This document shows, one piece after another, positions 463 through 42,091 of a stretch of 64,000 nt of DNA. A model generated the notes under the pieces. That model was not told the DNA's origin. It made no database searches and saw only the letters and a program-made list of their open reading frames with translations. Within the stretch, counting starts at the first letter, position 1. Each line of letters starts with the position of its first letter. This stretch comes from Cyanobacteriota bacterium (GTDB taxonomy: Bacteria > Cyanobacteriota > Cyanobacteriia > Cyanobacteriales > Nostocaceae). The stretch covers positions 64,001-128,000 of the forward strand of contig JBJOKS010000008.1 in NCBI GenBank assembly GCA_046045965.1, given 5' to 3'. Both the position numbers and the translations under genes were made by a program.

Positions 463-1446
463 TTAGGGTGCGGAATGTGGGATATTAATCTTTAAGGTTT
501 CCTGATTAGGAATTATTCTTGCATCATCAGATGATTCATCTTCAAGTGTGGAAGATGGGTTAGAACGAAGTCGAATTAAATAGAAGCCATCTTTTTCAAC
601 CACAGGAGTTGTGTGTTTTTCTTCCTTGATCTGATACCAAATAACTGGAAGACTAGAACGATTATATATAGTTAAATAGACATCATATTTATTCAGTAAT
701 AACGGATTTATTTGGAAGTTTAAAGAGCAACCCTGATAAATCACCCCATAGAAAAACTCGTTATTTGTATCTCCAACAGGTAAATATTCTTGCTGAACCC
801 ATTTTTGTGATATCCATTTTTGGCAAATGAGTAGAGTGAATATGTAATAATTAAGGCAGCGATAAAAAATATTATCTCGTACTGTTAAATTTTTGAGGTA
901 ATCGTTGATATCATCATTGTTAATTGCTTGAGTATTAATAATTTGATTTCCATCTACATTGATAGCTGGTAAATCAACCTGATCAGACCAACGATAGTAT
1001 CTTATGCCTAAAGTATATTTTCCAGGATTAAGCTTTAATTGATGCCATTGTTCCTGAAAACTTGAACCATCAGATGCTATATGTGTAATAGCTTTTGCAC
1101 TAGGGAAGCTATAAACACCAATAGTCCATGATTGGGCTGAATCTAGACAAGATTTTACATCTATGGCTAACGATTCCTTAACATCAAATGGTCCAGCACC
1201 AGCAGCAATTACATGGGGATTCCAACGGGGACCAGTAACTAGAATAGATGGTAATATTAAAGGCTTTCTTAGTAGTTCATCAGAGTATAATAGCCATTTA
1301 AAAACTGTTTTTTTGTTAAAATTTGCATTGATATTTACAAGAGTGCGTATTAAAAACCTCACAGTTTTAAAGAATATCCAAGATAAAAAAGCCAGTGGAA
1401 TTTCCCACAAAAGTTCTATATCTAAAAGGTTTTCGCTATTTCTCAT
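463..1446 (-). CDS. PKS-associated protein of unknown function (tentatively DUF6208-like)
   Basis: 327-aa ORF starting 24 nt after the stop of the last PKS gene, same strand. It has a hydrophobic N-terminal helix and a GPRWNPH motif. The family name is from recall and unverified. Confidence 0.7.
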   Translation of the reverse strand: MRNSENLLDIELLWEIPLAFLSWIFFKTVRFLIRTLVNINANFNKKTVFKWLLYSDELLRKPLILPSILVTGPRWNPHVIAAGAGPFDVKESLAIDVKSCLDSAQSWTIGVYSFPSAKAITHIASDGSSFQEQWHQLKLNPGKYTLGIRYYRWSDQVDLPAINVDGNQIINTQAINNDDINDYLKNLTVRDNIFYRCLNYYIFTLLICQKWISQKWVQQEYLPVGDTNNEFFYGVIYQGCSLNFQINPLLLNKYDVYLTIYNRSSLPVIWYQIKEEKHTTPVVEKDGFYLIRLRSNPSSTLEDESSDDARIIPNQETLKINIPHSAP

Positions 1447-1470
1447 TGATTAATTACCTGATGGTGTTGT

Positions 1471-8148
<6,678 letters not shown>

Positions 8149-8149
8149 G

Positions 8150-11100
8150 TTATACCTCCTTGTTAAGTAGGTTTTGGATCTGTTTGAGTTTTTCGGTAAT
8201 CGCGTCCGTTGCTGGTTCTGGGGAAGTTGCTTGTTTGTCTCCAGAAACATCTACTGGTGGTTGTTGTTGACCATTGTTGGCAATTTCAACCGTCGCTGCT
8301 AGTTTTTCTGCCAAAACCTCTGTGACTAGATACTCAGCTAAAGACTCAATATTCGAGTATTCAAACAAAATTGTTGAGGAAACAGCACAACCCAAACTGG
8401 TTTGTAGCAAATTTCTTAACTCTAAAGCCAGCAAAGAATCCATTCCCATATCAAAAAATCCTAGTTGTGGGTCTAGCAGTTGAGTGTCAGGGAATCCTAG
8501 TAACTTACCGACAACACCTTGGAGATAAGTCGTCATTATTTGGAGGCGATCACTCGTTTTAGCTGCCTTTAGTTCTGCCAAAAACTCGTTAGTCTGAGTT
8601 TCTTGGACTACAGATTGAGAATCAATAAATGCCTCCAATACTGGCATCTTCATTCCTGCTGGCAATTGTGTGACAAATTGAGGCCAGTTCACAGGAAACA
8701 CCCCTACTGAAGTTGCAGATTGACCCAACAACCGATCTAAAAGTTGCAACCCCTGTTCTGGAGGAATGCTACCCATACCTAGAGAACGAATTCGGCTTTG
8801 GAATTGATCTGCTAACCGACTTGCCATACCGCTTTCTCCCCAAGCACCCCAGTTTACACTTAATCCTGGTAAACCTAGCGATCGCCGATGCTGTGCCAAG
8901 CCATCCAGGAAAGCGTTAGCGGCTGCATAATTACCTTGACCAGTTGAACCTAACAAAGATGCTGCTGAGGAAAAACCAACAAAGAAGTCCAACGGTAACT
9001 CCTGTGTTAATTGGTGCAGATGCCATCCCCCTTGAATTTTCGGAGCCATGACTTTTGTAAACCGTTCCCAGTTCATCTGCTGTAGAACCCCATCATCCAA
9101 GACTCCTGCGGCATGAATCACACCCCGCAATGGTGGTAGGGATGCCTTGATCTGTTCTACAATCCTGGCTGCATCTTGTTTAACCGCAATATCTGCCAAC
9201 AATACTGAAACTTGAACTCCGGTTTGTTCTATTTCGGTAATGGTTTGTTGTGCTGTTTCTGAGGGTTGCCGTCGTCCTGTCAATACCAAATGTTTAGCAC
9301 CCTTATCTGCCAGCCACTTAGCCAACTGTAGTCCTAACGCCCCCAGTCCACCAGTAATTAGATAACTGCCTTCAGGAGTAATGGTAATTTCTGGCTGTTC
9401 TTCAGTAATTGCCTGTTTTTGGCGTACCAGTCGCGCTACCCGACGTTCTCCCTGACGGTAAGCAATCTGATTTTCGTCTGTTGTTGAGCAGAGTTCTTGA
9501 TGTAGCTGTTGTACCAGTTCTGCTTCTGTGGTGTTCGCTTCTAAGTCAAGTAACCGACATTGCAGTTCTGGATGTTCGAGAGCTACCACCCGACCTAATC
9601 CCCACACTGGTGTTTGTTGCACTTGCACTGCTTCGCCGTCTGTACCCATACTCATCGCTCCTTGGGTGACTACCCACAAAGGAGCTACCTGTTGCTGTTT
9701 GGTCTGTACCAAAGCTTGTACCAGATGTAGCAGACTCGAACAACCAGATTCTATGGCTGTTTCTAACTGAATATCAGTTGTTGACAGATTCCACAGATGA
9801 ACAATTCCCTGAAGTTGTGAGTTTTGAGCAGTGATTTCACCTAACAGACGTTTAAATTCTTCGGGAGCAGTGGGATTAAGTTGATAGTGTTTTGCGTCTA
9901 TCTTTTGATAACTTAAACCAGGCGATACAAAAATACATCCTGTACCCAATTTTTGCACTAACCCTTGTGCCAAAGTCCCTGGTTCTGTAAATACTAACCA
10001 GTTTCCTGTTGTTTGTTGTGAAGGAGTTGAGGGTTTTTGGGCTTGCCATTCTAGTTCATAAAGCCAACGCTGTGGTGTTACCTCTGAATAAGATGATAGT
10101 TGAGCCAGTATTTGTTGATTCCACTCAGCTATTTTTTCCTTGGATAACTGTTGTTGCTTTTGAGCCGTTAGCAATACATAGCTGGCTATGCCTTTGCTGA
10201 GAACTTTACCTAATTGATAGTAAGATTTGAAACCAGACCTGACGTTATCATCACGATTTCTTTGATACAACTGCTCCAAACGTTCCTCAAAGTCTGCATC
10301 GTACAAAAAGTTAGATATTTCTGGACTCACATCAATGGCTGCAACCAATTGAAGATGATGTTCAGATAGTAACTCTACCCACTCTGATTTAGTAATAAAG
10401 TAGGAAGATGTTTCTTGGTGATCAATGGACAATTCGCTGTTAGAGATGAAATCTGCTAACACCAAATATCCCTGTTGATTCAAATGATTGCCGATATTGG
10501 TAAATAATGCTTTTTTATCGAGAATGTGGTGGGCAACTTCAAACCCAAATACTAAATCATAGTTGTCGGGAAACTCATCTTTGGCACTATCTCGATTAAA
10601 GATTTTTACCCGTTCTTGGAGTTGATTTTCGTCTGCTTTTGTGCTACCCAGTTTGGCTTGTTCACTGGAAATTGTGTAGCCATTCAATTGCAGATGTTCA
10701 TGTTTTTTGGCTAACTGAATTAAATCGGAAGCGTATCCACAGCCAAAGTCTAAAACTTTTTGACAAGCGGAAAAATCAACTTGAGCAAACAATAATTTTC
10801 TCAACTCTTTTTGAGACTCAAGAATCATCTGACGTGATTTTTCTTGATTCGGTTCGGTGAGACATTTAATCCAAGAAAAATCAGGTACTTTTTCCGGGAA
10901 TAACCCAAAGGTTAAGAATGCGGAGTCTGATTTTGCATCTTCCTGATTTCCAGCTTGTTCTTGACCCAAAATTGCGACAGCATTGTAATATTCGTGAACG
11001 ACACCACCTTTAAATTCCAGATAATTTTGCTGTCTTTTAACCAAAAGTCCCAGTAATTTTGGCAGTAATTCTCGCTCTTGTGCGGTCAGTTCCCCAGCTA

Positions 11101-13951
11101 ATTCTAATTCCTGAGCTAACCCCTCTGTTGCACCTTGGTTGAGCAATTGCACAATTGGCGTTGAAACAGTTTTATCATTGTTTTGTTCCACTTCCTGCCA
11201 ATAGCGTTGCCGTTGAAATGGATAAGTTGGCAATGTTACTTTGCGACGGGGATAATCACTATCAAATCCTGACCAATCTATTGCTACTCCTTTTGTGTAT
11301 AGTTGCCCTAAACTGGAGAGGATTTGTTGCCAATCTTCTTGCGGTGGACGTAATGAAGGCAACCAAGTACCTACTTCTTCTGGTAAACATTGACGACCCA
11401 TTCCCAGGAGTATGGGTTTAGGTCCAATTTCCATGAAGATTTTATATCCTTCCCGATGCAAAGTTTGCATACTCTGGGCAAAATGTACTGGTTGTCGGAC
11501 ATGGTTTACCCAATATTCTGGGGTGGTGATGGCTGCTGTTGCCTGTTTTCCGGTGACATTAGAAATTATGGGTATGCACGGTTGATTGTACGTAATTTCT
11601 TGAGCAATAGCTGCAAACTCCCCTAACATTGGTTCCATCAGCGGGGAGTGGAAAGCATGAGACACTTGTAGGGGTTTGGTCTTGATTCCCATGTCTGCGA
11701 AATTCTGACAAATTGCTTCTATGGCTTCACCAACACCAGAAATCACAATACTGTCTGGACCATTGATAGCTGCGATTGCTACTTTATCTGCATAAGTGGC
11801 AATTGCTTCCTTTACCTGCGACTCTGAGGCCAAAACGGATACCATCTCTCCACCGCTGGGTAACTGCTGCATTAACCTGCCCCTAGCTGCAATCAGTTTT
11901 AGTCCATCTTCTAGGCTGAATACGCCGGCTATAGTTGCTGCTACATATTCGCCTACGCTATGACCCATGACTACATCTGGTTTGATGCCCCAAGATTGCC
12001 ACAATTTAGCCAAAGCGTATTCTATGGCAAAAAGCGCAGGTTGAGTGTATGCAGTTTGATCTAAAAGTGCGGAATTTTCTACCAGTGCTGTTGATTGTGG
12101 ATAAAGCACCGATAACAAAGGCTGATCTAGGTAAGGACGCAGAATTTCATTACATTCTTCCAAAACTTGCCTAAAAGTGGGTTGAGTTTGGTATAGTTCC
12201 CAACCCATATTTACATACTGGCTACCCTGACCTGTAAACAGAAAAGCTACTTTAGGTGAACTTGTGCTAGTTGAGATTTGACCAGAAAATAGTCCAGTAA
12301 CTTCCTTACCTGCGGACAGATTGCTGAGTTTTGTAGCGAGTTCAGCTTTATCACCAGTAATCACTGCCAGTCGATGATTAAAATGCGATCGCCCTGTATT
12401 TGCGGTGTAACAAATGTCTTTTAGCTCTAATTCTGGATGATTTTCCAGATGTTGGGCATAACTACGAACTAATTCTTCCAGAGCCTTGGGAGTTTTTGCT
12501 GAGAGAGATAATATATCTAATTTACGTTCTAAAGATTCTTCTGATGGAACTTGTGCTGGTGCTTCTTCCAAAATTATATGCACGTTTGTCCCACTAATTC
12601 CGAAGGCACTGATACCCGCCATCCTGGGCTGATTACCGACATTCCAGGGAATTGCTGAAGTAGGAACTACCAAAGGCAGTTGATGCCAAGGAATATGGGG
12701 ATTGGGTTGGTTTAAGTGCAAATGGGGTGGTATTTCTTGATTCTGAAGCGATAAAACCACCTTAATCAAACCAGAAACTCCTGCTGCTGCTTCCAAATGC
12801 CCAAAATTGGTTTTGACTGAACCTACTACCAAGGGTTGATTTATGGGGCGATTTTTGCCATAAACTGCTGCCAAAGACTCTAACTCAATCGGATCTCCCA
12901 GAGATGTTCCAGTGCCGTGCGCTTCCACATAGCTGACTTGATGCGGCTCTACTCTCGCATTTTGTAGTGCTTGCTGAATTACTTCTTTCTGAGCCATTTT
13001 GTTGGGAACTGTCAGACCGCTACTTGGTCCGTCATGGTTGACAGCCGAACCTCGAATCACCGCTAAAACGTTATCACCATCAGCTATAGCATCGGAAAGA
13101 CGTTTTAGAACTACCATTCCACATCCTTCTCCCTGTCCATAACCATCTGCGGAAACATCAAATGTTTTGCAGCGACCATCTGGAGCTAAGGCTTTCAATT
13201 GGCAACGAGCAATAGTGCTGAGTGGCCAGAGAATCAGATTTACTCCACCGGCGAGGGCAAGATTAGATTCTTGGGAACGCAAGCTCTGGCAAGCTAGATG
13301 GACAGTTAGTAATGAAGAGGAACAGGCAGTATCTAGCTGAATATTCGGACCTTGTAAGCCAAGGAAGTGAGAAATACGACCTACAGCCATACTGCGGGCG
13401 TTACCTGTACCAGAATGACTATCAAATAAGTGGAGCTTTTCCAGACTCACATTCCGTTGGCCATAGTCATCTGTGCAAATACCTACATATACACCTGTTT
13501 GGCTATTTCTGAGTTTTGTTGGTGTTTGTCCGGCATTTTCTAGAGCTTCCCAAGTAACTTCTAAAAGCAGTCTTTGTTGAGGGTCTAAACTTACTGCTTC
13601 TCTGGGAGAAATCCCAAAAAATACAGGATCGAACTGGTCTACTTTTTCGATAAAACCACCTTGTTTGGTGTATGTTTTCCCAGGTTTATCGGGATTGGGA
13701 TCATAGAAGGCATCAACATCCCAGCGACCAGGTGGGACTTCTGTTACACCATCAATACCTTCATGCAATAAACGCCAGAATGAGGCAGAGTCATTGGCAT
13801 TACCAGGAAATCTGCAACCTAAACCAATAATGGCAATAGGTTCAGTTTTTTCTTTGTTGACTGCTTCCAGTCTATTTCGCATTTCTTTGATAGTTTGAAG
13901 CACTTGTTGAGAGGAAACAATTTGTTGTTCTGTCTCTGAATTATTAGTCAT
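8150..13951 (-). CDS. Type I PKS module KS-AT-O-methyltransferase-KR-ACP (CurL-like)
   Basis: Intact KS triad; [24 protein letters not shown] and GFEVAHH placed between AT and KR; KR LDD; ACP MGMDSL. The likely start is ATG at 13951 (MTNNSE), just past the upstream stop. Confidence 0.93.
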
Positions 13952-13952
13952 T

Positions 13953-16900
13953 TTATATTTCTTGGTGAAGTAAAAGTTGAATTTCTTTAAGTTCATCCTG
14001 AAGAGCAGTCGCAATTAGTTCCTCTTGAATGGCCTTGGCGATCGCTTCTTCATCTAATGCTTTGAGTTCTCTATCAACAAACTGTTGTTGATTCTCATTG
14101 CTATCAATTTCCAATTTCTGCTCTAATTCCCCTCCGAAAATCTTTGTTATTAAATACTTGGCCAGCTTTTGAATATTAAAATGCTCAGACAATGTGGTTA
14201 CTGAAATAGAACAATTGAAACTTGTTTCTAATAGATTCCTGAGTTCGAGCATCGTCGAATAGTTCATACCCATATCAAAGAATCCTAACTGTGAATCTGG
14301 ACTTTGGGTATCATCAAATCCTAACAATTGAGTAATCAAATCTTGCAGGTAATTTATCATTAGCTGCTGGCGTTCTCCCTGGGGAGTTTTCTCCAGTTTT
14401 TGGAAAATTCCTAAGTCTTGTGCTGGCGATTGATCATATTCTTGAAACCGAGTAGTTAAAATTTTTAGGAGTTTAGGTAGCAATTTTTGCTCTTGTTCTG
14501 TCAGTTGTTCCTGGAAATTCAACTCATCTGCTAACTGCTCCGTATTAATTTTATTTAGTAATTCAGCAATTGTATTTAGGCTATTGTCCAGGATATCTTG
14601 TTGATGTCCATTTTGTTGATTTCTTTTTTCAGAAGTTTCCAGCCAATAGCGTTGTCTTTGAAACGGATAAGTAGGCAGTGCTACTTTGTGTCTCGGATCA
14701 TCTCGGTCAAACCCGGACCAGTCCACTTTCACCCCTTTTACATACAACTGCCCTAAACTGGAAAGCATCTGTTGCCAATCTTCTTGATCAGGATTTAATG
14801 AAGGCAAGCATAATCCCAAATCTTCTGATAAATATTGCTGTCCTATTTCTACGAGTATTGGCTGCGGACTAATTTCCAAAAATAGTTTATATCCTGACTG
14901 ATGCAGAGTTTGCATACTCTGAGTAAAATCCACAGGTTGTCCGATCTGGTCTATCCAATATTCAGGAGTGGCAATTTCTGATGTGGCTTTTTCTCCAGTT
15001 AGATGAGATATGATCGGGATCTGAGGCTGGCTGTAGGTAACTCCTTTAGCTACCGCTTCAAATTCCCCTGATCTAGATTCTACGAGCCTTGCTCTAGTTG
15101 TAATCAGTTTCAGTGCATCTTCTAAGCTGAATACTCCAGCAACAGTTGCTGCTACATATTCGCCTATACTATCACCCATCACCACATCTGGTTTGATGCC
15201 CCAAGATTGCCACAATTTAGCCAAAGCGTATTCTATGGCAAAAAGTGCTGGTTGGCTATAAGCGGGTTGGTCTAGTAGAGATGAACTTTGCTTATCTATG
15301 GTTGGAGGATAGAGAACGGAAAGCAGGGGATATTCTAAATCACCACGGAGAATTTGATCACATTGGTCGATGGCTTGCCGAAATACAAATGTTTTTTGAT
15401 ACAAATCCTTTCCCATTTGTACATACTGGGAATCTTGAGCGGTGAATAAGAAGGCTACTTTCGGCGAACTAGCATTGCTAGGTAATTGCCCGGAAAATAG
15501 TCCATTTACCTGTTCAGCTTGTAAATAATGATGGAGTTTTTCTGCTAATTCTTGTTGGTTAGTGGCGATCGCAGCTATTCGATGGTTAAAGTGGGCGCGT
15601 CCAGTATTGGCTGTATAACAAATGTCTGCTAGTTCCAATTCCCGATGATTTTCCAGATGATTGCGGTAAAGACTGACTAACTCTTCCAGAGCTTGTGGAG
15701 TTTTCGCCGACAAGGTTAATAGATGAAGTGGACGTTCGCTGGCATTCTCTATTTTCGCTGGAACGGGGGCTTCTTCTAAAACGACATGAGCATTGGTACC
15801 ACTAAAACCAAAAGAGCTAACCCCCGCAATTCGTGTTTGCGAATTAACTGACCAAGGAGTGAGTTGAGTTGGGACACTAACTGGTAGTTGATCCCAGTTG
15901 ATGTAAGGATTAGGCTTCTTCAGATGCAAATGGGGAACAATTTCCTGATGTTGCAATTGTAGGACGACCTTGATCAGACCTGCTATACCCGCCGCCGCTT
16001 CTAAGTGACCCATATTGGTCTTGAGTGAACCAATCATCAAGGGATTTTCTTGGCAATGATTCCCACTAAATACTGCCCCTAATGCCCCCACTTCAATGGG
16101 GTCTCCCAGAGATGTACCTGTACCGTGGGCTTCAATATAACTGACCTGGGATGGTTCAACCCCGCCATTTTCTAAAGCCTGAGAAATGACTTTTTGCTGG
16201 GATGGTCCATTGGGTACTGTCAAACCGCCAGAAGAACCATCATGGTTAATGGCAGAGCCTCGAATCAATGCTAAAATATTATCTTGGTTTTTGATCGCAT
16301 CTGAGAGTCGCTTGAGGACAATCACACCACAACCTTCCCCCCGCACATAACCATCCGCGTCGGCATCAAAGGTTTTACAACTACCATCAGGAGATAACAT
16401 TCTCGCCCGTGAGAAGACGATGCTGCCTTCTGGTGAGAGCAGCAAGTTTACCCCACCTGCTAAGGCCAGACTACACTCCTGCTGACGCAAGCTTTGACAG
16501 GCTAAGTGTACAGCGACTAAGGAAGAAGAACAAGCGGTATCTACAGCCAAAGAAGGTCCAGTTAATCCCAGAAAGTATGAAAGTCTGCCGGCAACAGTGC
16601 TGTAAGCATTGCCAGTGCCAAAATAAGCATTGAGTTCCTTAGCTGCTGAAAGTCTTCTAGCGTAATCATTATTACAAATACCAATAAATACTCCTGCGGG
16701 GCTGTCAGATAACTTTTCAGGGACTTGATGAGAATCTTCTAGGGCTTGCCAACTCACTTCCAGCAATATGCGCTGTTGGGGATCAAGACTCATTGCTTCC
16801 CGAGGTGAAATATTAAAGAAACTCGCATCAAAAGTCTCTACGTCATTGACAAAACTGCCGTAACGGGTATACATTTTGCCGATCGCATTGGGATCGGGGT

Positions 16901-17150
16901 CATAGTAGGCATCAGCATCCCAGCGAATTTTCGGCACTTCGGTAATGGTATCGACTCCATCGCGCAAGATCCGCCATAATACTGCTGGATGATCAATTCC
17001 TCCTGGGAATCGGCAGCCCATACCAATAATTGCAATTGGTTCAGTCTGGGCATATTCTAAAGCATCCAACTTAGATTGCATCTTCTCTAGTTGAAGTAGA
17101 CCATCTGCCAGCAAAGACTTATAGTCTATACTTCTTGGCTCTTGCTTCAT
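13953..17150 (-). CDS. Degenerate PKS module KS-AT0-ACP0 (intact KS, inactive-looking AT and ACP)
   Basis: [22 protein letters not shown] is intact. The AT has TAQDSQ for TGQGSQ, GDSIG for GHSVG, and lacks the segment containing HAFH. The ACP reads GMNYSTM instead of GMDSL. No KR. Confidence 0.88.
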   Translation of the reverse strand: MKQEPRSIDYKSLLADGLLQLEKMQSKLDALEYAQTEPIAIIGMGCRFPGGIDHPAVLWRILRDGVDTITEVPKIRWDADAYYDPDPNAIGKMYTRYGSFVNDVETFDASFFNISPREAMSLDPQQRILLEVSWQALEDSHQVPEKLSDSPAGVFIGICNNDYARRLSAAKELNAYFGTGNAYSTVAGRLSYFLGLTGPSLAVDTACSSSLVAVHLACQSLRQQECSLALAGGVNLLLSPEGSIVFSRARMLSPDGSCKTFDADADGYVRGEGCGVIVLKRLSDAIKNQDNILALIRGSAINHDGSSGGLTVPNGPSQQKVISQALENGGVEPSQVSYIEAHGTGTSLGDPIEVGALGAVFSGNHCQENPLMIGSLKTNMGHLEAAAGIAGLIKVVLQLQHQEIVPHLHLKKPNPYINWDQLPVSVPTQLTPWSVNSQTRIAGVSSFGFSGTNAHVVLEEAPVPAKIENASERPLHLLTLSAKTPQALEELVSLYRNHLENHRELELADICYTANTGRAHFNHRIAAIATNQQELAEKLHHYLQAEQVNGLFSGQLPSNASSPKVAFLFTAQDSQYVQMGKDLYQKTFVFRQAIDQCDQILRGDLEYPLLSVLYPPTIDKQSSSLLDQPAYSQPALFAIEYALAKLWQSWGIKPDVVMGDSIGEYVAATVAGVFSLEDALKLITTRARLVESRSGEFEAVAKGVTYSQPQIPIISHLTGEKATSEIATPEYWIDQIGQPVDFTQSMQTLHQSGYKLFLEISPQPILVEIGQQYLSEDLGLCLPSLNPDQEDWQQMLSSLGQLYVKGVKVDWSGFDRDDPRHKVALPTYPFQRQRYWLETSEKRNQQNGHQQDILDNSLNTIAELLNKINTEQLADELNFQEQLTEQEQKLLPKLLKILTTRFQEYDQSPAQDLGIFQKLEKTPQGERQQLMINYLQDLITQLLGFDDTQSPDSQLGFFDMGMNYSTMLELRNLLETSFNCSISVTTLSEHFNIQKLAKYLITKIFGGELEQKLEIDSNENQQQFVDRELKALDEEAIAKAIQEELIATALQDELKEIQLLLHQEI

Positions 17151-20100
17151 TTTATGTTTTCCCCTTTGAGGCTAGATAGTTTTTGGGCAAATAGGTTAGC
17201 AATTTCATCTTGAGACATTTCTTGTAATTGATCTTTGAATTGATCCAAGGAATCAGCCTCCGGCTCTGGGGCTTTTAAGTTAGAATCAGATGAAACAAAA
17301 AACTCCAGAGAAAGAACATCTGACACCAGATGATCCACCAGCTTTTCCAATGTAGGATAGTCAAACAGGACTGTAGAACTGATGGATTTCCCTAAACTGG
17401 ATTGGAGATGATTTCTCAACTCCACCGCCATCAAAGAATCTATTCCCAAGTCAAGTAACGATTCTCGTAACCCTATCTGCTTAGGTAATGTTACCCCCAA
17501 AACTTTGGCGGCTTGCTCCTGAACATGAATCACTAACAACTCCCGACGCTCTTCCACTGGAGTCACTTCCAGTCGCTGCATAAAATTGGACTTCCCTTTC
17601 CCCATATTTGACTGCCCCATCGTGGAAGTAAAAGCCTCCAAAAACGGCATCTTAGTCCCAATAGGTAACTGCTTCAAGAAATCAGACCAGTTGATTGACA
17701 AGACTCCCACCTGAGTAGCATCTTGTGCCAACAAGTCAGCCAATACCTGCAAACCTCCTTCAGCAGAAATGGGAATGAGTCCCTGAGTCAATATTCGATG
17801 CTGATGCTGACTTCCCAGACGTGCAGCCATTCCTCCTTCCGCCCACGGTCCCCAGTTAACACTCAGTCCCGGTAAACCCATTCCTCGTCGATAGTGAGCC
17901 AAGGCATCCATGAAAGCATTAGCGGCTGAATAATTCCCTTGACCTGGTGACCCCAGCACGGAAGCGATGGAAGAGAAACAAATGAAAAAGTCCAACGGTA
18001 GATGCTCAGTCAAGGTGTGCAGATACCAAGCCCCTTGGACTTTCGGTGCCATCACTTGTGTAAATCGCTCCCAACTCATCTGTTGCATTAAACCATCATC
18101 CAATACCCCCGCTGCATGAACTATACCTCGTAACGGTGGTAAAGATGTTTCGATTGACTCCAGAATTTTAGTCACATCTTCTGCTTGGGAGATATCCCCA
18201 CACAGAACTAATACCTGTACTCCTGCCTTTTGCAATTCTTCAATGCTTTGTTGAGACAAATCTGATGGCGGTTTACGTCCAGTAAGGACTAAATGTTTGG
18301 CTCCTTGTTCTGCCATCCACTTCGCTGTATGTAACCCCAGTGCGCCCAAACCCCCGGTAATTAAGTAACTGGCTTCGGGTTGAATCGAAGCTGGTTTTTC
18401 ATCAGTTTCATCAGCTTGTGGCATCGATACTACGACCTTGCCAATGTGTTTGCCTTGCTGCATATAGCGAAAAGCTTCCACAACCTGTTCGATGTCAAAG
18501 ACTTTATGAGGTAAAGGCTTTAAATAACCTTGTGCAAATTGCTGTCCCAAACAGTCCATGATTTGGGTAATTAAACCCGGATTTTCTTGAGCCACTTCCC
18601 CTAAGTCGAAGGGAAAATACTGAGCATCTGGTCTTTTCTGTTTGACCTGATCTTCATCCCAAATCCCAATTTTGCCAATTTCCACGAACCGCCCCCCGGG
18701 CGCTAAAACCTCAAAGCTCTTGGTAATAAATTCCCCATTCAGACTATTGAGTACCACATCCACACCCTGTCCCTGGGTAAGATGCATGACTTCTGCGGCA
18801 AAATCTAAAGTCCGGGAGTTCATCAGATGTTTCACACCCATAGATTTGAGAAATTCCCATTTGGAAGGGCTGGCCGTCGCAAATATTTCTGCTCCCGCTT
18901 GTTGTGCTATCTGCACTGCTGCTTGCCCCACTCCTCCTGCCGCAGCATGAATTAATACTCTGTCTCCTGGTTGAATTTTCGCTAGGTTATGTAACCCATG
19001 ATAAGCAGTGGAGAAGACTAAGGGAATGGTTGCTGCTGCAAATGAGTTCATCTGTTTGGGTTGAAGAACTACAAACTCGGCTCTGGCGGTGATAAAACTA
19101 CTCAAAGCACCAGGCAGAAGGTTGGCCATCACTTCATCCCCCACTTGCAAATGAGAAACCCCTTCTCCAACTGCCACAATTGTGCCGGCACATTCAAACC
19201 CAAAAGTCAGTTGTTCGGCACTGGTAATGCCGAGATGTTGGGCATAGTAATCTTTCAGCAGCCCTAAAGCATTCAGTACATCGCGGAAATTCAGTCCTAC
19301 AGTTTTCACTCTTATTTCCACTTCCTGTGGACCTGGGGAGCGACGTTCCATTGGTTGTAAGCTGAGATTGTCTAACAACCCATATTCTGATAACTTCAGT
19401 TGGAATGGTTGTTGCGAGGAAATTTCTAATCTGCCTTGTGTGGATCTTAGAGCTTTTTGTTGCCGTGTTAACCTGGCAACATGACGTACCTGTTGACGGT
19501 AAGCGATTTGGTTTTCATCACCAGGGGATAATAATTCCTGCAACAAAGTTGGTACTGCTTGGAAATCTTCTCCAGCAGGATCTAAGTCTAAACACCGACA
19601 TTGTAATTCCCCATTTTCCTGGGCAATTGTTCGCCCCAGTCCCCACAGTGGGCTTTGTTGAAACTGTATATTATGTGACTTATTACCCACTGATTGAGCG
19701 CCTTGAGTCACTAGCCACAATGCAGGGGGATTTTTTATTTGTTGATTTTTGACTATAGCTTGTACTAAGTGAAGTACGCTGCCACAACCCAATTCTTGGG
19801 ACTTTTGCAACTCCTGTGCCGATGTTGGTGTTGTTAGTGTTGCTTGTAAACTCCACAGATGGACAATTCCTCGTAATGGGGGTTGCTGCTCTAAGCTCTC
19901 TTGCAATAGGCGCGGGAATTCACTGACATTAATCGGATTGATTTGATAATGATGGGATGCTAACTGCTGATAATTCTCCCCTGGTGTCACTAAGATACAA
20001 TGCTGACCTTGTTTTTCTAAGGATTCTGCCAGTTGTTTGCCTATACCTGTGGGTGGGGAAAACAGTAGCCAGCTACCTGGTTTTGTTAAGTCAATGGATT

Positions 20101-23100
20101 GGTTTGCCGGTGACGTTGATTGCGGTTGCCAATGGATTTGATATAACCAATTACTGACATCTGGTCTGAGAGTATTTAGTAAGGCTTGGCGAGAAGTACG
20201 TAATACGGTTAAACCTTCTACTTGAGCTACTACTATTCCCTGTTCATCCAATATCCGGACAACACCTGTCAACGTTCGTTCATTGGTTTTGATTGCACCT
20301 ATCTCTACTTGCGTCCACAGATGATTACTAGCAGGACGATAAACTTGTAGCCGTTTTATGTTGACTGGTAAGTAAGTACTCTGATTTTCAGTTTCATCAA
20401 AAGCAGCAGCCAACAGATGGAAACTAGCATCTAACAGCACGGGGTGCAGTTGGTATTTTGTTGCTTCTGGGACTAAGGTTTCTGGTAACTGAATTTTACC
20501 TAGTGCTTTTCCTTGACTGCGCCACAGTTGCTGAACAGCTTGGAAACTTGAACCGTAATCAATGCCTCTATCTCTATACTCTTGGTAGAAGTCTTGAGGT
20601 GATATTTGTTGATGATACTCGGCTTTAATGGCTTTTAAGTCCGTTTTTTCTAGTTCATCATCCTGATCCCCTGCCAGCAATTTTCCTTGTGCATGTAGAA
20701 TCCACCTCGATTCTGACTTCTGAGAATCCATCTCCAGACTCAAAATCTCGAAACTATAAGTTTGCGCTTCTTGTGGGGTTAATACAACCTGAATCGTTTT
20801 GATTTCATCTTCTGATAAAATCAGTGCTTGTTGAATAACAACATCTTCTAGGATTAAATTTTCTGATTTGAATAAAGTTGCACCTGCTGCTAAAGCTATT
20901 TCTAGATAACCTGCTCCTGGAAAAACGGGTTTAGAAAAAACACAATGGTGTTGCAGGTAAGTCGGATGGGAAGCACTGAGAAGGCACTGAAAACGAATTT
21001 GCTGTTCTAAGCCAGCTAAATACAATCTCTGACCAAGTAGAGGGTGAAGATTCTCATGGTTTGATAAAAATTGGGTTTTATTCGTCAGATTATTATCTGT
21101 CTCCCAATACCGTTGCCGTTGAAAGGGATAGGTGGGCAACACCACTTTACTATGGGAATAATCTTGCTCAAAGCCTAACCAATCTACTTTCATTCCCCGC
21201 ACATATAATTCTCCCAAGCTCTGTAGTATTTGTTGCCAGTCTTCTTGACCCGAACGCAAAGAAGGCAACCAAACCCCAACTCCTTCTGGCAAACACTGTC
21301 TTCCCATCCCTAACAATATTGGTTTGGGTCCTATTTCTAGGAAGATTTCATAACCTTCTTGGTGCAATGTCTCCATGCTTTGGGCGAATTTCACTGGTTG
21401 GCAGACATGATTTACCCAGTAGCTGGCTGTGGTAATACTCTCGTCGGCTCTTGCTCCTGTGACATTCGATATCAATGGAATCCGAGGTTGATGGTAGGTT
21501 ATTTGATTGGCTACTGCTTCAAATTCCGCTAACATCGGTTCCATTAAGGGTGAATGAAAAGCATGAGATACTTGTAGCTGTTTGGTCTTGATTCCTTCTG
21601 CTTCTAAGCTCTCCCTCAGTTTTCCAATGGCTTCTGCTTCACCAGAAATGACAATGCTCACAGGTCCGTTGATGGCAGCTATGGCCACTTTTTCTGTGTA
21701 TGGGGCAATCAGTTGATTTACTTTCTCTGGGGATGCCATCACAGCTAACATCTCACCACCGTGAGGTAACTGCTGCATTAACCGTCCCCGATGGGCTATC
21801 AGTTTGAGTCCATCTTCTAAACTAAATACTCCTGCTACACAAGCTGCGACATATTCCCCAACACTATGACCCATCACCCCATTTGGTTTCATCCCCCAAG
21901 ATTCCCATAACTTAGCCAGGGCATATTCAACGGCAAATAAGGCAGGTTGAGTATACGCGGTTTGGTCTAGCAAAGAGGAGCTTGACGCTTCCTGCGTGTT
22001 AGGATAAATAATTTCTAGAAGTGTATGTTCCAGATAGGAACTGAGGATTTGCTCACATTGATCTAAAGCTTGGCGGAAAGTCGGCTGAGTTTCATACAGT
22101 TGTCGCCCCATGTTCAGATATTGGCTACCTTGACCTGTGAATAGGAAGGCTACTTTGGGCGCACTGCTACTACTTGGTAGTTGTTCTGAAGATATTCCTG
22201 CTGCTTCTGACCCGGCTTTGTGTTGCAGAAGTTTTTCTGTTAGTTCCTGTTGGTCAGAGGCGATAATGGCTAGACGATGGTTGAAGTGGGCGCGTCCAGT
22301 ATTGGCTGTATAACATACATCTGCAACTGCTAATTCTGGATGAGTTTCTAAATGATGTTGATAACGACTGACTAAATCTTCAAGGGCTGTTTCTGTTTTT
22401 GCCGATAAGGTTAATATATGGAGTGGACGTTCTAAATTATCTTCACTTTTGCCTGGGGATTTTTGATTTTTGACTGGCTCAGGAAATTCTTCCAAAACTA
22501 TATGGGCATTAGTGCCTCCCATGCCAAAAGAACTAATCCCTGCTATTCTTGCTTGACCTGGACAAGACCAAGGCATTAATGAGGTAGGAATTTTTATCGG
22601 TAATTTATCCCAATCTACATGGGGGTTAGGTTGTTTAAAGTGTAAATGAGGTGGAATTTGCTGATGCCCAAGTGCTAAAACCACCTTAATCAAAGCTGAT
22701 ACACCTGCTGCTGCTTCTAAATGCCCAAGATTAGTCTTTACTGAGCCAACAACCAAAGGTTGATCCACTGGACGATTTTTGCCGTATATTGCTGCTAGAG
22801 CTTCTATCTCTATGGGATCTCCTAAAGAAGTTCCTGTGCCGTGAGCCTCGACATAGGTTATTTGATGGGGTTCTAACTTGGCATTTGTCAGTGCTTCTTG
22901 AATGACCTGTTTCTGAGCCATTCTATTGGGAACTGTGAAAGCACTACTTGGTCCATCGTGGTTAACAGCAGACCCTCGAATCACTGCTGAGATTAAATCA
23001 CCATCAGCAATAGCATCGGATAAACGCTTTAAAACTACAACACCACATCCTTCTCCCTGACCATAACCATTGGCAGAGGCATCAAAAGTCTTGCAACGAC

Positions 23101-23875
23101 CATCTGGAGATAGTGCTTTTAATTGGCAGCGACCTATCGTGCTGGTGGGCGCTAAGATCAGATTGACTCCACCTACTAATGCTAAGTTGGATTCTCCTGA
23201 ACGCAAGCTCTGAGAAGCCAGATGGATAGCAACTAGAGAACTTGAACAAGCTGTGTCTATCTGTATATTAGAGCCTTGTAAACCCAATAGATGAGAAATA
23301 CGACCGACACCAACACTTCTACTCTTACCGAGAGCAGAGTAAGTACCAGCACTTTGATTTTGGTGCATGATACTCAAGGCAGAATAGTCATCTGTGGAGA
23401 TGCCGATGAAAACACTTGTCTTGCTATTCTTCAGGTTAGCCCATGTTTGTCCGGCATTTTCCAGTGCTTCCCATGTCACTTCCAACAGTAGTCTGTACTG
23501 AGGATCTAAACTAATTGCTTCCCGAGGAGAAATTCCAAAAAATAGGGGATCAAACTGGTCAAATTGATCAATAAATCCCCCCTCTTTGGTGTAGGTTTTT
23601 CCAGCAACTTCTGGGTCTGGATCGTAATAAGCATTAACATCCCAACGCTGAGGAGGCACTGGTGTAATGGCATCTATGCCATCATGTAATAAGTTCCAGT
23701 ATGTCGATAGGTCATTAGCACCACCAGGAAATCGACAGGCCATGCCAACAATAGCGATTGGTTCGGTTTTGGCTTTATTTACTGCTTCCAGCTTACTTCG
23801 CATTTCTTTGAGAGCTTGAAGCACTGCTTGAGATGAGAAATTTTGTTGGGTTGTTTGAGAAATATCACTAGCCAT
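17147..23875 (-). CDS. Type I PKS fully reducing module KS-AT-DH-ER-KR-ACP (CurK-like)
   Basis: KS triad; AT GHSVG/HAFH; DH HPLLG...[10 protein letters not shown] and [39 protein letters not shown]. The stop overlaps the next start (ATGA). Confidence 0.95.
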
Positions 23876-23876
23876 T

Positions 23877-26800
23877 TTAGTTCTCCTCCTTTAGCAAAGC
23901 CTGGATTTCTTGTAATTCTGCCGCGATCGCAATATCAATTTCCTCTGGCGTTTCCCTATTGGGAGGAGGTACATTTGGCAGATTTTGACTGTTTTTAAGT
24001 TCAAGTTCTTGGTCTTGACCTTCTGGGAAAATTTCCTTAATTAAGTATTCTGCCAAGTCTTGGATATTAGAAGTCTCAAACAATGTAGCCGTACTAATAG
24101 AACAACCAAAAGTAGAACTCAACAGATTTCTCAATTCGACAGCAATCAATGAATCCATTCCCATTCTAAAGAATCCTAATTCTGGCTGAGGAAGTTGAGA
24201 TTTCGAGAATCCTAATAAGTTACCTATTTTTACTTGAAGATAATGAATCATAATTTGGTGGCGTTCAATCTCGACTGCTGCTTTCAGTTGTTCCAAAACT
24301 TCTTGACTCTTGGTTTCTTTCTGTTGTTTTGAAACCAATGCTTCTAAGCATGGCATTTTTACACCACCAGGCAAATGTTCGGCAAATCTAGACCAATTGA
24401 TCGGAAATACTCCTACTTGACTGACTGGCTGTGATAATAGCTCTCCTAATATCTGTAATCCTTTTTCTTGAGTTATAAAACTCATTCCTGTTGCACGTAG
24501 CCGATTTTGATGTTGACTTCCTAGACGAGCTGCCATTCCCCCTTGCTCCCAAGCCCCCCAGTTGATGGTTAATCCTGGTAATCCCATGCTCTGACGATAG
24601 TAAGCTAAAGCATCCATAAAGGCATTCGCCGCCGCATAGTTTCCTTGACCTGCTGAACCAAGTAAGGATGTGATGGAGGAAAAACAAACAAAGAAGTCTA
24701 GTGGTAGTTTCTGAGTTAAGTGATGTAAATGCCAAGCTCCTTGTAATTTTGGAGCCATAACTTTCCGAAACCGCTCCCAGTTCATCTGCTGTAAAACACC
24801 ATCATCTATGATTCCTGCTGCATGAATCACACCTCGTAATGGTGCTGGAGATTCCTCAATCAGCTTCAGGATACTAGCGACATCTTGTTCCTCAGATATA
24901 TCTCCTAGTCTGACTGATATTTTTGCTCCTGTTTGTTCCAACTGCTGAATAGTTTCCTGGACTCTTGCTGAGGGGGGGCGACGTCCGGTTAATACTATAT
25001 GTCGCGCGCCCTGTTTAATCATCCATTGAGCTACTTCCAATCCCAAAGCTCCCAGACCACCAGTCACTAAATAACTTGCTTCTGGTTTTAGTGTTATTTG
25101 TTGCTGTTGTTCTGAGATTTGATCTGGCGATCGCCTGACTAATCTAGCTACATAACGCTCTTTTCCACGGATGGCTATTTGGTCTTCATCGTCAGGATTT
25201 AATATTTCCTTGGCTAATGCTTCTAATGTTTCTGAGCTTTGGGTTTGGTCTACATCAACTCGCCGACATTTTAGCTCTGGGTGTTCTAATGCTATCACCC
25301 GACCCAAACCCCATAAAGGTGCTTGCTGTACTTTTACTTGCTGTTGATTTTCTTCTACATTTTGTGTTTCTTGGGTCACTAACCATAGAGGTACTACTGA
25401 TCTCGGATCTGATCCCATTGCTTGCACTAAATGTAGTACACTTGCACACCCTAGTTCTTGAGCAGTTTCCAACTCTTCTGTTGAGGTATTAATACTCCAT
25501 AAATGAACGACTCCTACTAATTTATTTTGAGTAGTCAACAACTCTTTTATTAGTTGTTTAAACTCTTGGGCATTGGTGGGGTTCAGTTGATAGTGTTGCT
25601 TGTCTAACTGATTGTAGCTAGATCCAGGAGTGACGATGACACAATTCTGATTCTGTGCTTCTAAAACTGTTTTTAACTCTTGGGTTGGTTCGTCGGCAGC
25701 GAATATTAGCCAATTCCCTGTCTCCTTTGGTGAAATTGACTTTTTCTGGGGAGATTGCGTGACTTTCCATTTCAATTCGTAAACCCATTGTTTAACTGCC
25801 ACTTCTGAGTAAGATAACAGTTGACTTAGAATTTGTTGGTTCAACTGATAAATTTGCTGTTTGGGAATTTCCTCTTGTTTTTTAGCCGTTAATAATACAT
25901 AGCTGGCTAATCCTTTTCTGAGCAGCTTTCCTAACTGATTGTAGGAGCGAAAAGCAGATTTAATATTCTCGTCATGACTTTTTTGCTCTAATTCATGTAG
26001 ATTATCTTCAAATTCAGGATCTTCCAAATAGTTAGCTATTTCCTGACTGATATCTATGGCTTGAATGAGTTGCAGATGATTTGTTGATAGTTGCTCTACC
26101 CAATGCTGTTTGGTAATAAAGTAAGAGGAAGTTTCTTCATGGTCGATATCAAAGTCTCCATTGGCAATAAAATCTGCCATGACTAATAATCCTGCTTCCT
26201 GAAGATGCCTACTTATATTAGAAAATAACAGGGATTTATTTTTAATATGATGAGCTACTTCAAATCCAAATACTAGGTTATAGTGATCAGGAAATTCATC
26301 TTTGGAGCTATCTCGGTTAAAAACTTGGATCTGCTCTTGCAGTTGATAGGCATGAATTTGGCTTGTGGCAAATTTAGCTTGTTCACTGGAAATCGTATAA
26401 CCATTCAGTTGCAGGTGTGGGTAAGTTTTGCCTAATGTGATTAAATCTGAGCCATATCCACAACCAAAATCTAATACTTTCTGACAGGACGAGAAATCTA
26501 CTTGTGCAAAACACAGGTTTCTTAGCTCTTTCTGTGACTCTAGCAAAGCTGTTTGATATGTTGGGTTTTGATGGGGGTTGGTAAACACTTTTACCCAGCA
26601 AAAACCAGGGATAATTTCTGGTAATATCCCAAAGGTGATGAATTGTAGTGATTTACCTTCTGTCTGTTCTTCTTGGCTTAACTTTGCTTTACTAACTTCT
26701 GTAAAGGAATTATAGTAATCATGAACTACATTGCCTTTAAATTGAGAAGAATTTTGATGCCGCTCAGTTAAAATTCTGAGCAACTTGGGTAACAATTTTT

Positions 26801-36776: not shown

Positions 36777-37088
36777 ATGGGTAATACAGATAGTCTTAAA
36801 CGGGTTGTAGTCCTACGTAGTGAGGATTCGTTTGGTGGCGAGCCGGACACCATTTACGGTGAGAGTCAAGGGAAAAGAAAGAAAAAGAAAAGAAAGAAGC
36901 AATCAAAACTTCTGAGTCCTACGGAGAAGATGGTCTTTGCTATGGCCAAACGTCTAGACAAAGCCACTACAGATTACCGAGATCGCCACTCAGCATCGAA
37001 TAAGAAGAAGAAAAATGGCTGGATTCGTGATTATCCCAAGAATTTGAGCAAAGCCTTGTCCAAGGCTGGAGGTATGAAACTATTTTAG
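36777..37088 (+). CDS. Small highly basic protein (tentatively DUF6312-like)
   Basis: 103-aa ORF with an ATG start, KRKKKKRKKQSK and a HSASNKKKKNGWIRD motif. The family name is from recall and unverified. Confidence 0.7.
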   Translation: MGNTDSLKRVVVLRSEDSFGGEPDTIYGESQGKRKKKKRKKQSKLLSPTEKMVFAMAKRLDKATTDYRDRHSASNKKKKNGWIRDYPKNLSKALSKAGGMKLF

Positions 37089-37454
37089 TTTTGTCCTTAA
37101 GCAGTATTTCCAACACAGATGGTAAATCAACTGCTCTTAAGCAGACTATTGGCAGCACAGAGGATGTTTTAAAAGATTCTTTAGCTTTCATAGCCAGGAA
37201 AGCAACGTATGTGAGTATACTAATAAAACATTGGGAGTTTGATACAACTGCCAAGGTAACTTTTAAAACATCCTCATCCAAGGAATAAGTCAGGAAAATT
37301 GATTTTTAGTGCTGTTGAGTAAAAAAACCTCAAATTCTACATTGTCAATCAATAAAAACCCTCAGTAAAAACTAGGATAGTTATATCCGATATTTCGACT
37401 GAGGAATTGTTTAGTTATTTATCTAAGAATACAAAGAAAACACCGAGGTCAATC

Positions 37455-37697
37455 ATGGTAGTGCCAGGAAATACCGCTGAAAGCAATCGGATTCAAGAAG
37501 CAAATACTATTATTCTTGAATTCAGCAGCGCGAAAAAGGATGATATCCGCGATCTTCGAGCAGGTGAGGGTAAGCTCTTCAAAAGAATACAAAACGCAAT
37601 TGACGAGCTGCAGGAAACAGGGGAATTAGGGGATTGTGTGCAGCCAGTGATTGTCATTGTTCAGCAAAAGAAATCTGACAAGGGAATATTAGACTAG
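37455..37697 (+). CDS. Small protein homologous to the C-terminal domain of the 1963-aa protein (tentatively DUF6200-like)
   Basis: ATG at 37455 after GAGG. ANTIILEF...KKDDIRDLRAGEGKL...VQPVIVIV matches the C-terminus of 30050..35941. Confidence 0.8.
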   Translation: MVVPGNTAESNRIQEANTIILEFSSAKKDDIRDLRAGEGKLFKRIQNAIDELQETGELGDCVQPVIVIVQQKKSDKGILD

Positions 37698-37802
37698 GGG
37701 TGATTTGGGTAATTTAAAACTATAACTACAAAACCAAGACCTTAGCCAATTTGCGAGGGTGGTTTAGTGTTTTTCCAAATTATTAACTCCCTTTTATTTC
37801 CG

Positions 37803-37845
37803 GTTTGGACTATAGGTAATTTTGATAGTCCAAACGGTAATTTTT
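37803..37845 (+). terminator. Possible intrinsic terminator hairpin
   Basis: An 11-bp stem, GTTTGGACTAT (37803-37813) and ATAGTCCAAAC (37825-37835), followed by a T-rich run downstream of the small gene. Confidence 0.45.
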
Positions 37846-38048
37846 CTGTTGAGCTATAAAAATCTGCAACCCTTGATTTAGCAATTCTTTTGTTTTTTTT
37901 TCAGCAACCCCTAATTAGGGATTGCTGTATTTTTCATGCACGATATTTTTAAGTAAAAAAAGTTTCTGTGAGAAAATTAAGCAAAGTGTAGTATAAATAG
38001 AGGCGCAGAAATTCATTAGTCCATAGGTCAAGAGGTCAAATTAATAAC

Positions 38049-39239: not shown

Positions 39240-39622
39240 ACTTCAATAGTTTGAGAGCATTCAGGTGATATACTTTCGCTCAAACCATTGATTTTCTGTC
39301 CGAATGCTTCGCCTCTACAAGGTAAAAACTCTATTGTATAAACATTTCATGGATTGCCAATAAGCTGTTACGCATTTATTTTTTTTACTCAAAAGCCTTA
39401 CACAATAACTCTAGGCTACAAAATATTAAATTTAATTGCGCCTCAGCTTATTATATTTGTCAATTCAAATTTAGAATCGCTCATAATCTATTTTACGGAA
39501 TTATTCGAGTCTGGTACGATTAATATTTGCAGGTGAGTAATGGTGCTTTTTTTATCATCTTCTGCCAAAATGGGAACTCTTTAACTACTTTCGGATCACT
39601 ACCGTTATAAAATGCTTTTTCC

Positions 39623-41590: not shown

Positions 41591-42091
41591 GGGCTTGCTG
41601 AAAAAGTGGGGAAAGTCAACCTCAGGATTCTTTAGTTATTCAATCAAGATGTCAAGATAAGTTTTTTTTGTTTATAATGAAATAAAATATAAGCTTGGAT
41701 AATCTTAAAGGATTCTCCCTGATCTGCTCTACTGTTTCTCTATCACTTGTTCCTATCTTTTCTTTGATAATTAATGCTCTTAATGCCATCCGAAATGGTT
41801 TAGCTGGTGCGCCTATTTCTGAGGAAAACATTGCTGCATATTCCGCTTCAAATTCTGACCAAGGTATCATTTTCTCGATGATTACCCAACGATTATCCGA
41901 CGCTAGTTTGCACTCCTTGGATATTTCAAAGCTTTTCAGTTTCGTTTTTTGTTTTTTCTCTTTTCTATACATTTTGATGCTTTCGGATGCAAGGGTTTTT
42001 ACCTATTTTAACTCTTTTTCTTGCACCTTTTTCACCTTCTATCCCCTGAATCTCTTAATTTATCGGGGTTTTTGCCTTATTCAGCAAGCCC
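41591..42091 (-). mobile_element. Internally deleted IS5-family element with truncated transposase pseudogene (41652..41972)
   Basis: Terminal inverted repeats GGGCTTGCTGAA and TTCAGCAAGCCC, with TA on both flanks. The ORF DNRWV...IPWSEFEAEYA...GAPAKPFRMAL...SDRETVEQIRENP is a transposase N-terminus only. Confidence 0.85.

Follow-up and report, generated by a model that had tools for sequence, protein, structure and literature searches.

Introduction

The closest described counterpart of the genes reported here is the end of the curacin polyketide synthase (PKS) cluster of Moorena producens 3L, where the O-methylating module CurL acts once and CurM carries out extension, sulfation and terminal-alkene release. 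In work by Kapur from 2012, an acyl carrier protein (ACP) fitted to its own ketosynthase (KS) reportedly turned a DEBS module iterative, and for stuttering modules the back-transfer of the chain from the ACP to the module's own KS is an accepted route (bioRxiv 2021.01.15.426894). Here we analyzed 64,000 nucleotides of a Nostocaceae genome (GenBank assembly GCA_046045965.1, contig JBJOKS010000008.1, positions 64,001 to 128,000 of the forward strand), referred to as the window, which contains five cis-acyltransferase (cis-AT) PKS genes, PKS1 to PKS5. An initial annotation had proposed that PKS4 is used for several rounds, with its C-terminus docking either on the N-terminus of another PKS4 or on PKS5. 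We consider it moderately probable that PKS3, PKS4 and PKS5 form a synthase of polymethoxy-1-alkenes (PMAs), in which PKS3 primes, PKS4 iterates by back-transfer from its ACP to its own KS, and PKS5 releases the product.

PMAs, known since 1979, were first detected in producers of tolytoxin (Tolypothrix, Scytonema) and are reported to disturb zebrafish development (PMC3497026). Aphanizomenon ovalisporum from Lake Kinneret produces isotactic PMAs with 7-12 methoxy groups, differing in steps of 58 Da, whose chain has a pentyl tail and ends in a terminal alkene. The source cites penta- and hexamethoxy members for Scytonema and only suggests a PKS origin of PMAs (PMC3497026). In the open literature, a coverage that leaves out most subscription papers, we found no gene assignment for a PMA gene cluster or for this locus.

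Results

Domain organization of the five PKS genes

Open reading frame (ORF) calls and Pfam placed all five genes on the minus strand. They encode combinations of KS, AT, O-methyltransferase (O-MT), ketoreductase (KR), dehydratase (DH), enoylreductase (ER), ACP, sulfotransferase (ST) and thioesterase (TE) domains; the N- and C-terminal docking segments are called heads and tails.

23877..29759, minus strand: PKS1, KS (without a docking head)-AT-O-MT-KR-ACP, with a Glu-subtype CurL-like tail, AAELQE at 23924-23907 (Pfam, motifs, tail comparison)
17147..23875, minus strand: PKS2, CurM-type head (Lys..Arg), KS-AT-DH-ER-KR-ACP and CurH-type tail; fully reducing (Pfam, motifs, comparison of termini)
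13953..17150, minus strand: PKS3, intact KS, broken AT, neither O-MT nor KR, an ACP with Tyr in place of Ser, and a Glu-subtype tail; proposed priming or adapter subunit
8150..13951, minus strand, ATG at 13951: PKS4, KS-AT (HAFH, malonyl)-O-MT (StiD/StiE family)-KR (LDD)-ACP; proposed iterating module
1471..8148, minus strand: PKS5, head of the Glu..His type (LEQVH at 8109-8095), KS-AT-KR-ACP-ST-TE; CurM-like terminal-alkene release

The start of PKS5 was most likely the GTG at 8148, which is preceded by AGGAGG. A motif search located GHSVG and HAFH, the latter being the malonyl motif of AT domains (PMC11907408), in the ATs of PKS1, PKS2, PKS4 and PKS5. The methyltransferase of PKS4 matched the solved StiD and StiE O-methyltransferase structures at E about 1e-75 and lies between AT and KR with an S-adenosylmethionine (SAM) motif, as in the PKS-embedded O-methyltransferases of StiD, StiE and CurL. 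PKS5 ends in ACP-ST-TE behind a KR of the active type (Pfam; motifs SSPRSGST, GHSMG, GGHNLH and LDD), an order that predicts CurM/Ols-type release. Pfam detected no AMP-binding domain in PKS1-5 or in 10 neighboring ORFs, so that Ols-type loading by a fatty acyl-AMP ligase (FAAL) and ACP is not indicated there.

Phylogeny of KS4 and ACP4

In a tree of 26 KS sequences, KS4 was placed in a clade of 12 (support 100/97), the other nine members of which all follow an O-methylating module (CurM, PKS2 and PKS5 types). Within this tree KS4 was sister to KS5 (99/96), in agreement with a quick tree of 64 sequences. ACP4 grouped among the ACPs of O-MT modules (91, from 80 columns only). From its position in the clade that follows O-methylation, KS4 should be able to accept the product of its own module. 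ACP4 and KS4 are thus of the kinds that normally pass a β-methoxy chain from one module to the next, which suggests that such an ACP-KS pair is here combined within one protein; with a CurL-type ACP4 and a CurM-type KS4, the chain would go back to KS4 in the PKS4 dimer. The proposed multi-round use of PKS4 was supported by the KS clade, by the conservation of the cassette and by its fit to PMA chemistry, and, taking the models considered together, it is likely that PKS4 iterates. That its chain length is set by competition with PKS5 is plausible.

Docking termini and their charge subtypes

All six terminal peptides on which the initial annotation was built were located by translation at the respective protein ends. 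The PKS4 O-MT, used as a query, retrieved 21 loci, among them the curacin cluster end of M. producens 3L (L021). CurL and CurK were identified there by matches to 4MZ0 and 4MYZ and by UniRef name; the other Cur names are presumed from gene order. The tail of CurL was of the type found on PKS1, PKS3 and PKS4, and the head of CurM of the type found on PKS2, PKS4 and PKS5, while CurL's own head was different. Of the 22 head residues compared with CurM, 16 were identical in PKS4, 18 in PKS2 and 8 in PKS5, as against 1-7 in the heads of CurH to CurL. The heads of PKS4 orthologues shared 13-16 of the 22 residues in 18/18 sequences, and those of 14 other O-MT modules with a readable head 1-8. None of these 14 combined a CurM-type head with a CurL-type tail as PKS4 does, and PKS4 is thus a CurL-like body bearing a CurM-like head. 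This head could be aligned with the N-terminal segment of CurL in 4MZ0 and is predicted to form the helical pre-KS segment of class 2 cis-AT docking domains. In class 2 domains two C-terminal helices enter an eight-helix bundle; in the sequences of the PKS4 tails, conservation was limited to the last helix.

The PKS2-PKS3 junction differed from the others, as had been noted, with a CurH-type tail facing a CurI-type head. The further claim that the remaining tails are of one type and the remaining heads of another was borne out as a likeness beyond the docking-domain background, but within each type the sequences separate by charge into two subtypes. The head of PKS4 belongs to one of these and its tail to the other. 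The subtypes were recognized from the salt bridge that joins the CurK tail (E24) to the CurL head (K70/R73; PMC9113145), positions that were mapped by sequence through 4MYZ, with inferred offsets rather than coordinates:

13877..13891, minus strand: PKS4 head core IKEMR; Lys22 and Arg25 would correspond to CurL K70/R73
8180..8197, minus strand: PKS4 tail core TEKLKQ; Lys1921 would correspond to CurK E24, with the charge reversed

We counted 53 natural tail-head pairs of this docking family. Loci L076-L125 contributed only those O-MT modules whose tail is CurL-like and whose downstream partner has a readable head of the CurM-like kind; L126-L132 stand outside the count and L061-L075 repeat earlier loci. 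The count also leaves aside PKS4 of Microseira (L007) and of genome G261, in both of which the tail is replaced, and PKS4 of L018, which has no adjacent partner. Thirty-six tails carried Glu, and all 36 faced Arg at position 73 (one of these pairs, PKS3-PKS4 of Aetokthonos, spans genes on different contigs). The other 17 carried Lys and faced, in 17/17 cases, a head lacking Arg73 (Glu..His, Asn..Glu or Asn..Gln); since they comprise 15 orthologues and two others, they represent at most three independent origins and are not independent observations, a first point against our reading. PKS3 to PKS4 is a Glu/Arg pair and PKS4 to PKS5 a Lys/Glu pair.

These pairs bear directly on the proposal that one PKS4 binds by its tail to the head of a second, so that the chain is passed between copies as in the rhabdopeptide nonribosomal peptide synthetases (NRPSs), with PKS5 competing for the tail. 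A PKS4 tail on a PKS4 head would set Lys against Lys and Arg, and a Lys tail facing an Arg head occurred in 0/53 pairs: at the specificity positions as mapped by sequence, the tail of PKS4 is not complementary to its own head. The orthologues point the same way. Among 27 PKS4 clusters at ≥75% identity, 26 of them complete, the complete ones had 20 Lys tails, five short linear motifs, one other tail and no Glu tail; the tail was thus replaced in 6/26, while the head was nearly invariant and kept Lys..Arg wherever readable. In G261 a short-motif tail precedes a gene with a TubC_N docking domain and a thioesterase, and such swaps indicate that the PKS4 tail tracks the downstream terminator. Moreover, an O-MT module with a post-O-MT-type KS in locus L082 has no head at all. 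In favor of self-docking, head and tail belong to the matching CurM/CurL family, and docking-driven iteration is known from the rhabdopeptide NRPS. Class 2 docking domains have a hydrophobic core in common, and the CurK tail also binds other partners, with lower affinity (PMC9113145), so that weak cross-binding of the PKS4 tail and head may occur. Overall, the sequences argue against this part of the initial annotation, and self-docking appears an unlikely route of PKS4 iteration. In the best reading, the predicted docking code orders PKS3, PKS4 and PKS5 and provides no PKS4-on-PKS4 contact, and iteration probably takes place within the PKS4 module rather than by docking of its two ends.

PKS3, a subunit with an altered carrier protein

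The AT of PKS3 has GDSIG and a 78-aa deletion that removes HAFH, and its ACP lacks the serine that carries phosphopantetheine, both overlooked in the initial annotation:

14259..14261, minus strand: Tyr964 of PKS3 at the phosphopantetheine Ser position (GMNYS, compared with GMDSL in PKS4)

Tyr occupied this position in 17/18 PKS3-like sequences; in the remaining one (L014) the motif was not found. The Ser at +1 was considered as a shifted attachment site and rejected, as it is Ala or Leu in 3/17 sequences while Tyr is constant. The catalytic cysteine of KS3 was retained in 17/17 complete sequences. In six pairs dN/dS was 0.28 for the dead ACP of PKS3, 0.26 for its AT remnant and 0.18 for its tail, compared with 0.07-0.15 for the domains and 0.66 for the linker of PKS4; the dead ACP and the tail of PKS3 are under purifying selection.

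PKS3 lies directly upstream of PKS4 in 15/21 loci and in G261, which makes 16 genomes besides this one. The clade of KS3 and the head of PKS3 vary with the upstream module, and such clade switching is expected of a priming KS. In minimal clusters, PKS3 consists of a PKS1-type N-half joined to a PKS3-type C-half (26-sequence KS tree), which implies either that the window version gained two modules in between or that the minimal clusters lost them; Aetokthonos has the same PKS1-PKS2 arm as the window. The dead ACP grouped with the ACPs of O-MT modules (91), and was sister to ACP4 at only 82.

PKS4 could also iterate with PKS3 as a mere scaffold or decaying relic, the starter going directly to KS4, for instance from PKS1, whose tail, being of the Glu subtype, is expected to match the head of PKS4. 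The decay of AT3 differs in degree among sequences, the parts of PKS3 exceed PKS4 in dN/dS by a factor of two to three, and L014 lacks a recognizable ACP motif, all of which would suit such a relic. The intact KS3 cysteine and the exchange of KS3 clade and head with the upstream module speak for a working subunit, as do the minimal clusters, where PKS3 is the only upstream PKS and carries a PKS1-type KS, and the PKS2 tail, which fits the PKS3 head type only. We regard a relic or scaffold as very improbable, and retain PKS3 as the putative priming subunit.

Distribution of the cassette

The O-MT family was patchy: at E<=1e-40 it occurred in 13/389 genomes of the host family, 10 of the 13 having a match at ≥89% identity, and in 4/401 genomes of a phylum sample. 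Umezakia ovalisporum Ak1311 (L006) has a three-gene PKS3-PKS4-PKS5 version ending in ST-TE, and its genome contained a single match to the PKS4 O-MT family at E<=1e-8. Ten near-identical PKS4 sequences formed one cluster and were mostly named U. ovalisporum; these names support the identity of U. ovalisporum with A. ovalisporum, which we otherwise take as given. Scytonema sp. PCC 10023 likewise has the cassette. In Anabaena sp. UHCC 0451 it lies inside the scytophycin locus, where Table S3B of PMC5772238 lists it as Orf8-10 without an assigned function.

Across the loci, the starter arms next to the cassette were a bare KS, FAAL-ACP, modules with DH and a C-methyltransferase, or the PKS1-PKS2 arm, and the terminators were ST-TE, TE or TubC_N-TE. 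We lean slightly towards viewing PKS3-PKS4 as a portable 'polymerase cassette', in which a carrier-less subunit (Ser to Tyr, under selection) primes a self-accepting O-methylating module for ~5-12 rounds between variable starter arms and terminators, and which would provide the missing pathway to PMAs and probably to related polymethoxy lipids.

A metagenome search with an O-MT alignment was also performed; among the matches listed, 79/80 loci were distant methyltransferases (E >= 1e-10), and none was used. In two metatranscriptome runs contigs lay over 29/30 bins of 1000-20000, which was not taken as evidence of transcription, as DNA carry-over is possible.

Proposed mechanism and candidate product

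A short acyl chain, hexanoyl judging by the pentyl tail of PMAs, would load KS1, after which, by their domains, PKS1 would contribute a single methoxy unit and PKS2 a single fully reduced one in this genome. The chain would then reach KS3. PKS3 has no working ACP, but its Glu tail would dock on the Lys/Arg head of PKS4, so that KS3 may hand the chain to ACP4 or condense it there; the anatomy of this step is observed, its chemistry conjectural. KR4 and O-MT4 would form a β-methoxy thioester, and in each of several rounds the chain would be returned to KS4 of the same PKS4 dimer, as the KS and ACP clades suggest. With one KR acting in every round, an isotactic pattern would result. The Lys tail of PKS4 would recruit the Glu head of PKS5, which would extend once, sulfate and release a terminal alkene by the chemistry of CurM, and competition between KS4 and KS5 would yield a homologous series. 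Repeated O-MT/KR rounds followed by ST-TE release would give exactly the structure of PMAs, and the cassette genes most likely make these compounds. If they do, a link that is made by species, a single O-MT module faces 7-12 methoxy units, i.e., there are fewer modules than units. A 4,6,...,18,22-nonamethoxy isomer of A. ovalisporum (Banker et al., quoted in PMC3497026) has the skipped pattern that a PKS1-PKS2 arm predicts.

Each module may instead act once in colinear order, and the product would be a short terminal alkene with one or two methoxy groups; PKS4 would then have kept its CurM-type head and KS from an ancestor with an intact O-methylating PKS3, and PMAs would come from other genes. 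The grouping of the dead ACP with O-MT-module ACPs and its tail of the same type make such an ancestor likely, orthogonal docking subtypes suit a colinear line, and iteration has been misdiagnosed before, for ebelactone (PMC5082578). An ACP without serine would, however, block colinear passage, so that a non-canonical step is needed regardless. The single O-MT match in U. ovalisporum contrasts with a variable series of 7-12 methoxy groups, and no minimal cassette of the 21-locus set contained a second O-MT module. Colinear use seems improbable to us, though somewhat less so than self-docking. Two short contigs of Moorena sp. SIO3H5 (L019, L020) have O-MT modules whose tails are of the Lys and of the Glu subtype, and are perhaps a line like the colinear ancestor with two O-MT modules.

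Several further points weigh against a PMA synthase with an iterating PKS4. The CurM-type KS4 could be left over from a colinear ancestor in which two O-MT modules followed each other, and access of ACP4 to KS3 is left without explanation. Among the window ORFs examined there was no loading gene (FAAL or ACP) that would account for the starter. No strain was found in which a sequenced cassette coincides with measured PMAs, the two being linked by species or genus. Other reported sources of PMAs are Raphidiopsis, Microcystis, Pseudanabaena and green algae (PMC7077266); none of these appeared among the locus titles and protein names retrieved, where most proteins are nameless, and a stand-alone O-MT together with another PKS could be an alternative source of PMAs. 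The completeness of the genome (G001) behind the single-O-MT count is not given. Finally, Ak1311 lacks the PKS1-PKS2 arm that the skipped isomer would fit, and the tail of this isomer is two carbons shorter than a hexanoyl start gives, so that a butyryl starter would be needed.

Neighboring genes and variants of the cassette

Next to the cassette, the window contains the following features:

463..1446, minus strand: DUF6208 gene, adjoining the cassette in several loci and also found after curM
30050-35941, minus strand: 1963-aa protein with at least four LamG domains, ricin-B-like repeats, an acidic TDDEE(L/S) repeat and a C-terminal DUF6200; a relative lies directly upstream of the cassette in UHCC 0451
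36777..41392, no single strand: accessory genes that accompany the cassette in several loci, namely a small ORF (36777), a DUF6200-like ORF (37407), a GT1 glycosyltransferase (38049-39239) and an ABC1 kinase (39623-41392)
41652-41972, minus strand: short ORF at the cluster edge, presumably a transposase remnant

The DUF6208 gene, the GT1 glycosyltransferase, the ABC1 kinase and two small ORFs recurred next to the cassette in several genomes in varying order, and may serve storage, export or modification of the product. On contig C5 of G000, at ~133-222 kb, a large KS-domain cluster with two O-MT matches at 36-37% resembled the trans-AT scytophycin locus that adjoins the cassette in UHCC 0451.

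The cassette comes after a KS-AT-DH-MT-KR module in Symploca, Dapis and Okeania (L046:7171-13944, L050:4660-11415, L051:410-7237), and Pfam confirmed the MT of this module for L046; methyl-branched polymethoxydienes are predicted. The polymethoxydienes of Myriastra are a lead for possible products of these marine versions. The cassette follows a FAAL loader and precedes thioesterase-ending modules in Microseira (L007:219-18515) and in a Moorena metagenome-assembled genome (MAG; L047-L049), for which polymethoxy acids or macrolides are predicted. In G261 (L056:12643-14562) PKS4 is followed by the TubC_N-thioesterase gene and a leucine-carboxyl-methyltransferase-like gene, suggesting polymethoxy methyl esters. 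A plasmid copy in Tolypothrix sp. PCC 7601 (L219:15277-21286) comprises PKS3 and an apparently truncated PKS4 gene, annotated at only ~925 codons, and PKS3 matches at ≥80% coverage were present on four cyanobacterial plasmids. L082 (3-11613), from a Leptolyngbyaceae MAG, has a KS with a broken AT and no ACP, followed by the headless O-MT module, whose KS grouped with post-O-MT KSs (98/92 with its downstream KS); this is a possible independent iterating cassette.

Comparison with known systems

If our reading is true, the three-gene candidate would be a DNA marker for PMA producers in blooms, and the module a small natural system in which to study what permits back-transfer and sets the number of rounds, far above the known two or three. 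The exchange of Glu/Arg for Lys/Glu would be a testable specificity code for cyanobacterial docking domains.

With CurL-CurM the locus shares the order KS-AT-O-MT-KR-ACP, then KS-AT-KR-ACP-ST-TE and a DUF6208 gene, the docking family, and an identity of about 61% in the O-MT, 76% in the ST and 78% in the TE. It differs in that the head of CurL is of another kind (7/22 to CurM), the KS of CurL lies outside the post-O-MT clade, curacin has no dead-ACP subunit, and the CurL-CurM pair is of the Glu/Arg subtype. With StiD and StiE of stigmatellin, PKS4 has only the O-MT domain family in common. The rhabdopeptide/xenortide NRPS Kj12ABC likewise has single-module subunits, variable chain length and a terminating subunit (PMC9113145); it is, however, an NRPS with β-hairpin/short linear motif (SLiM) docking for which cross-reaction is shown, whereas PKS4 docking is predicted to be helical and class 2-like, with reversed charges that argue against self-docking.

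PKS4 also resembles AurA (aureothin), borrelidin module 5, stigmatellin, azalomycin module 1 and NOCAP module 5, in which one module is reused by returning the chain from its ACP to its own KS, in a scheme that combines a tolerant KS with gatekeeping downstream (bioRxiv 2021.01.15.426894, PMC5082578). Those modules perform two or three programmed rounds and give a fixed product (PMC5082578), while for PKS4 5-12 rounds, a variable series, O-methylation in each round and a dedicated dead-ACP priming subunit are proposed. A primed, self-accepting O-methylating module is thus best read as a variant of programmed iteration and not as a new class.

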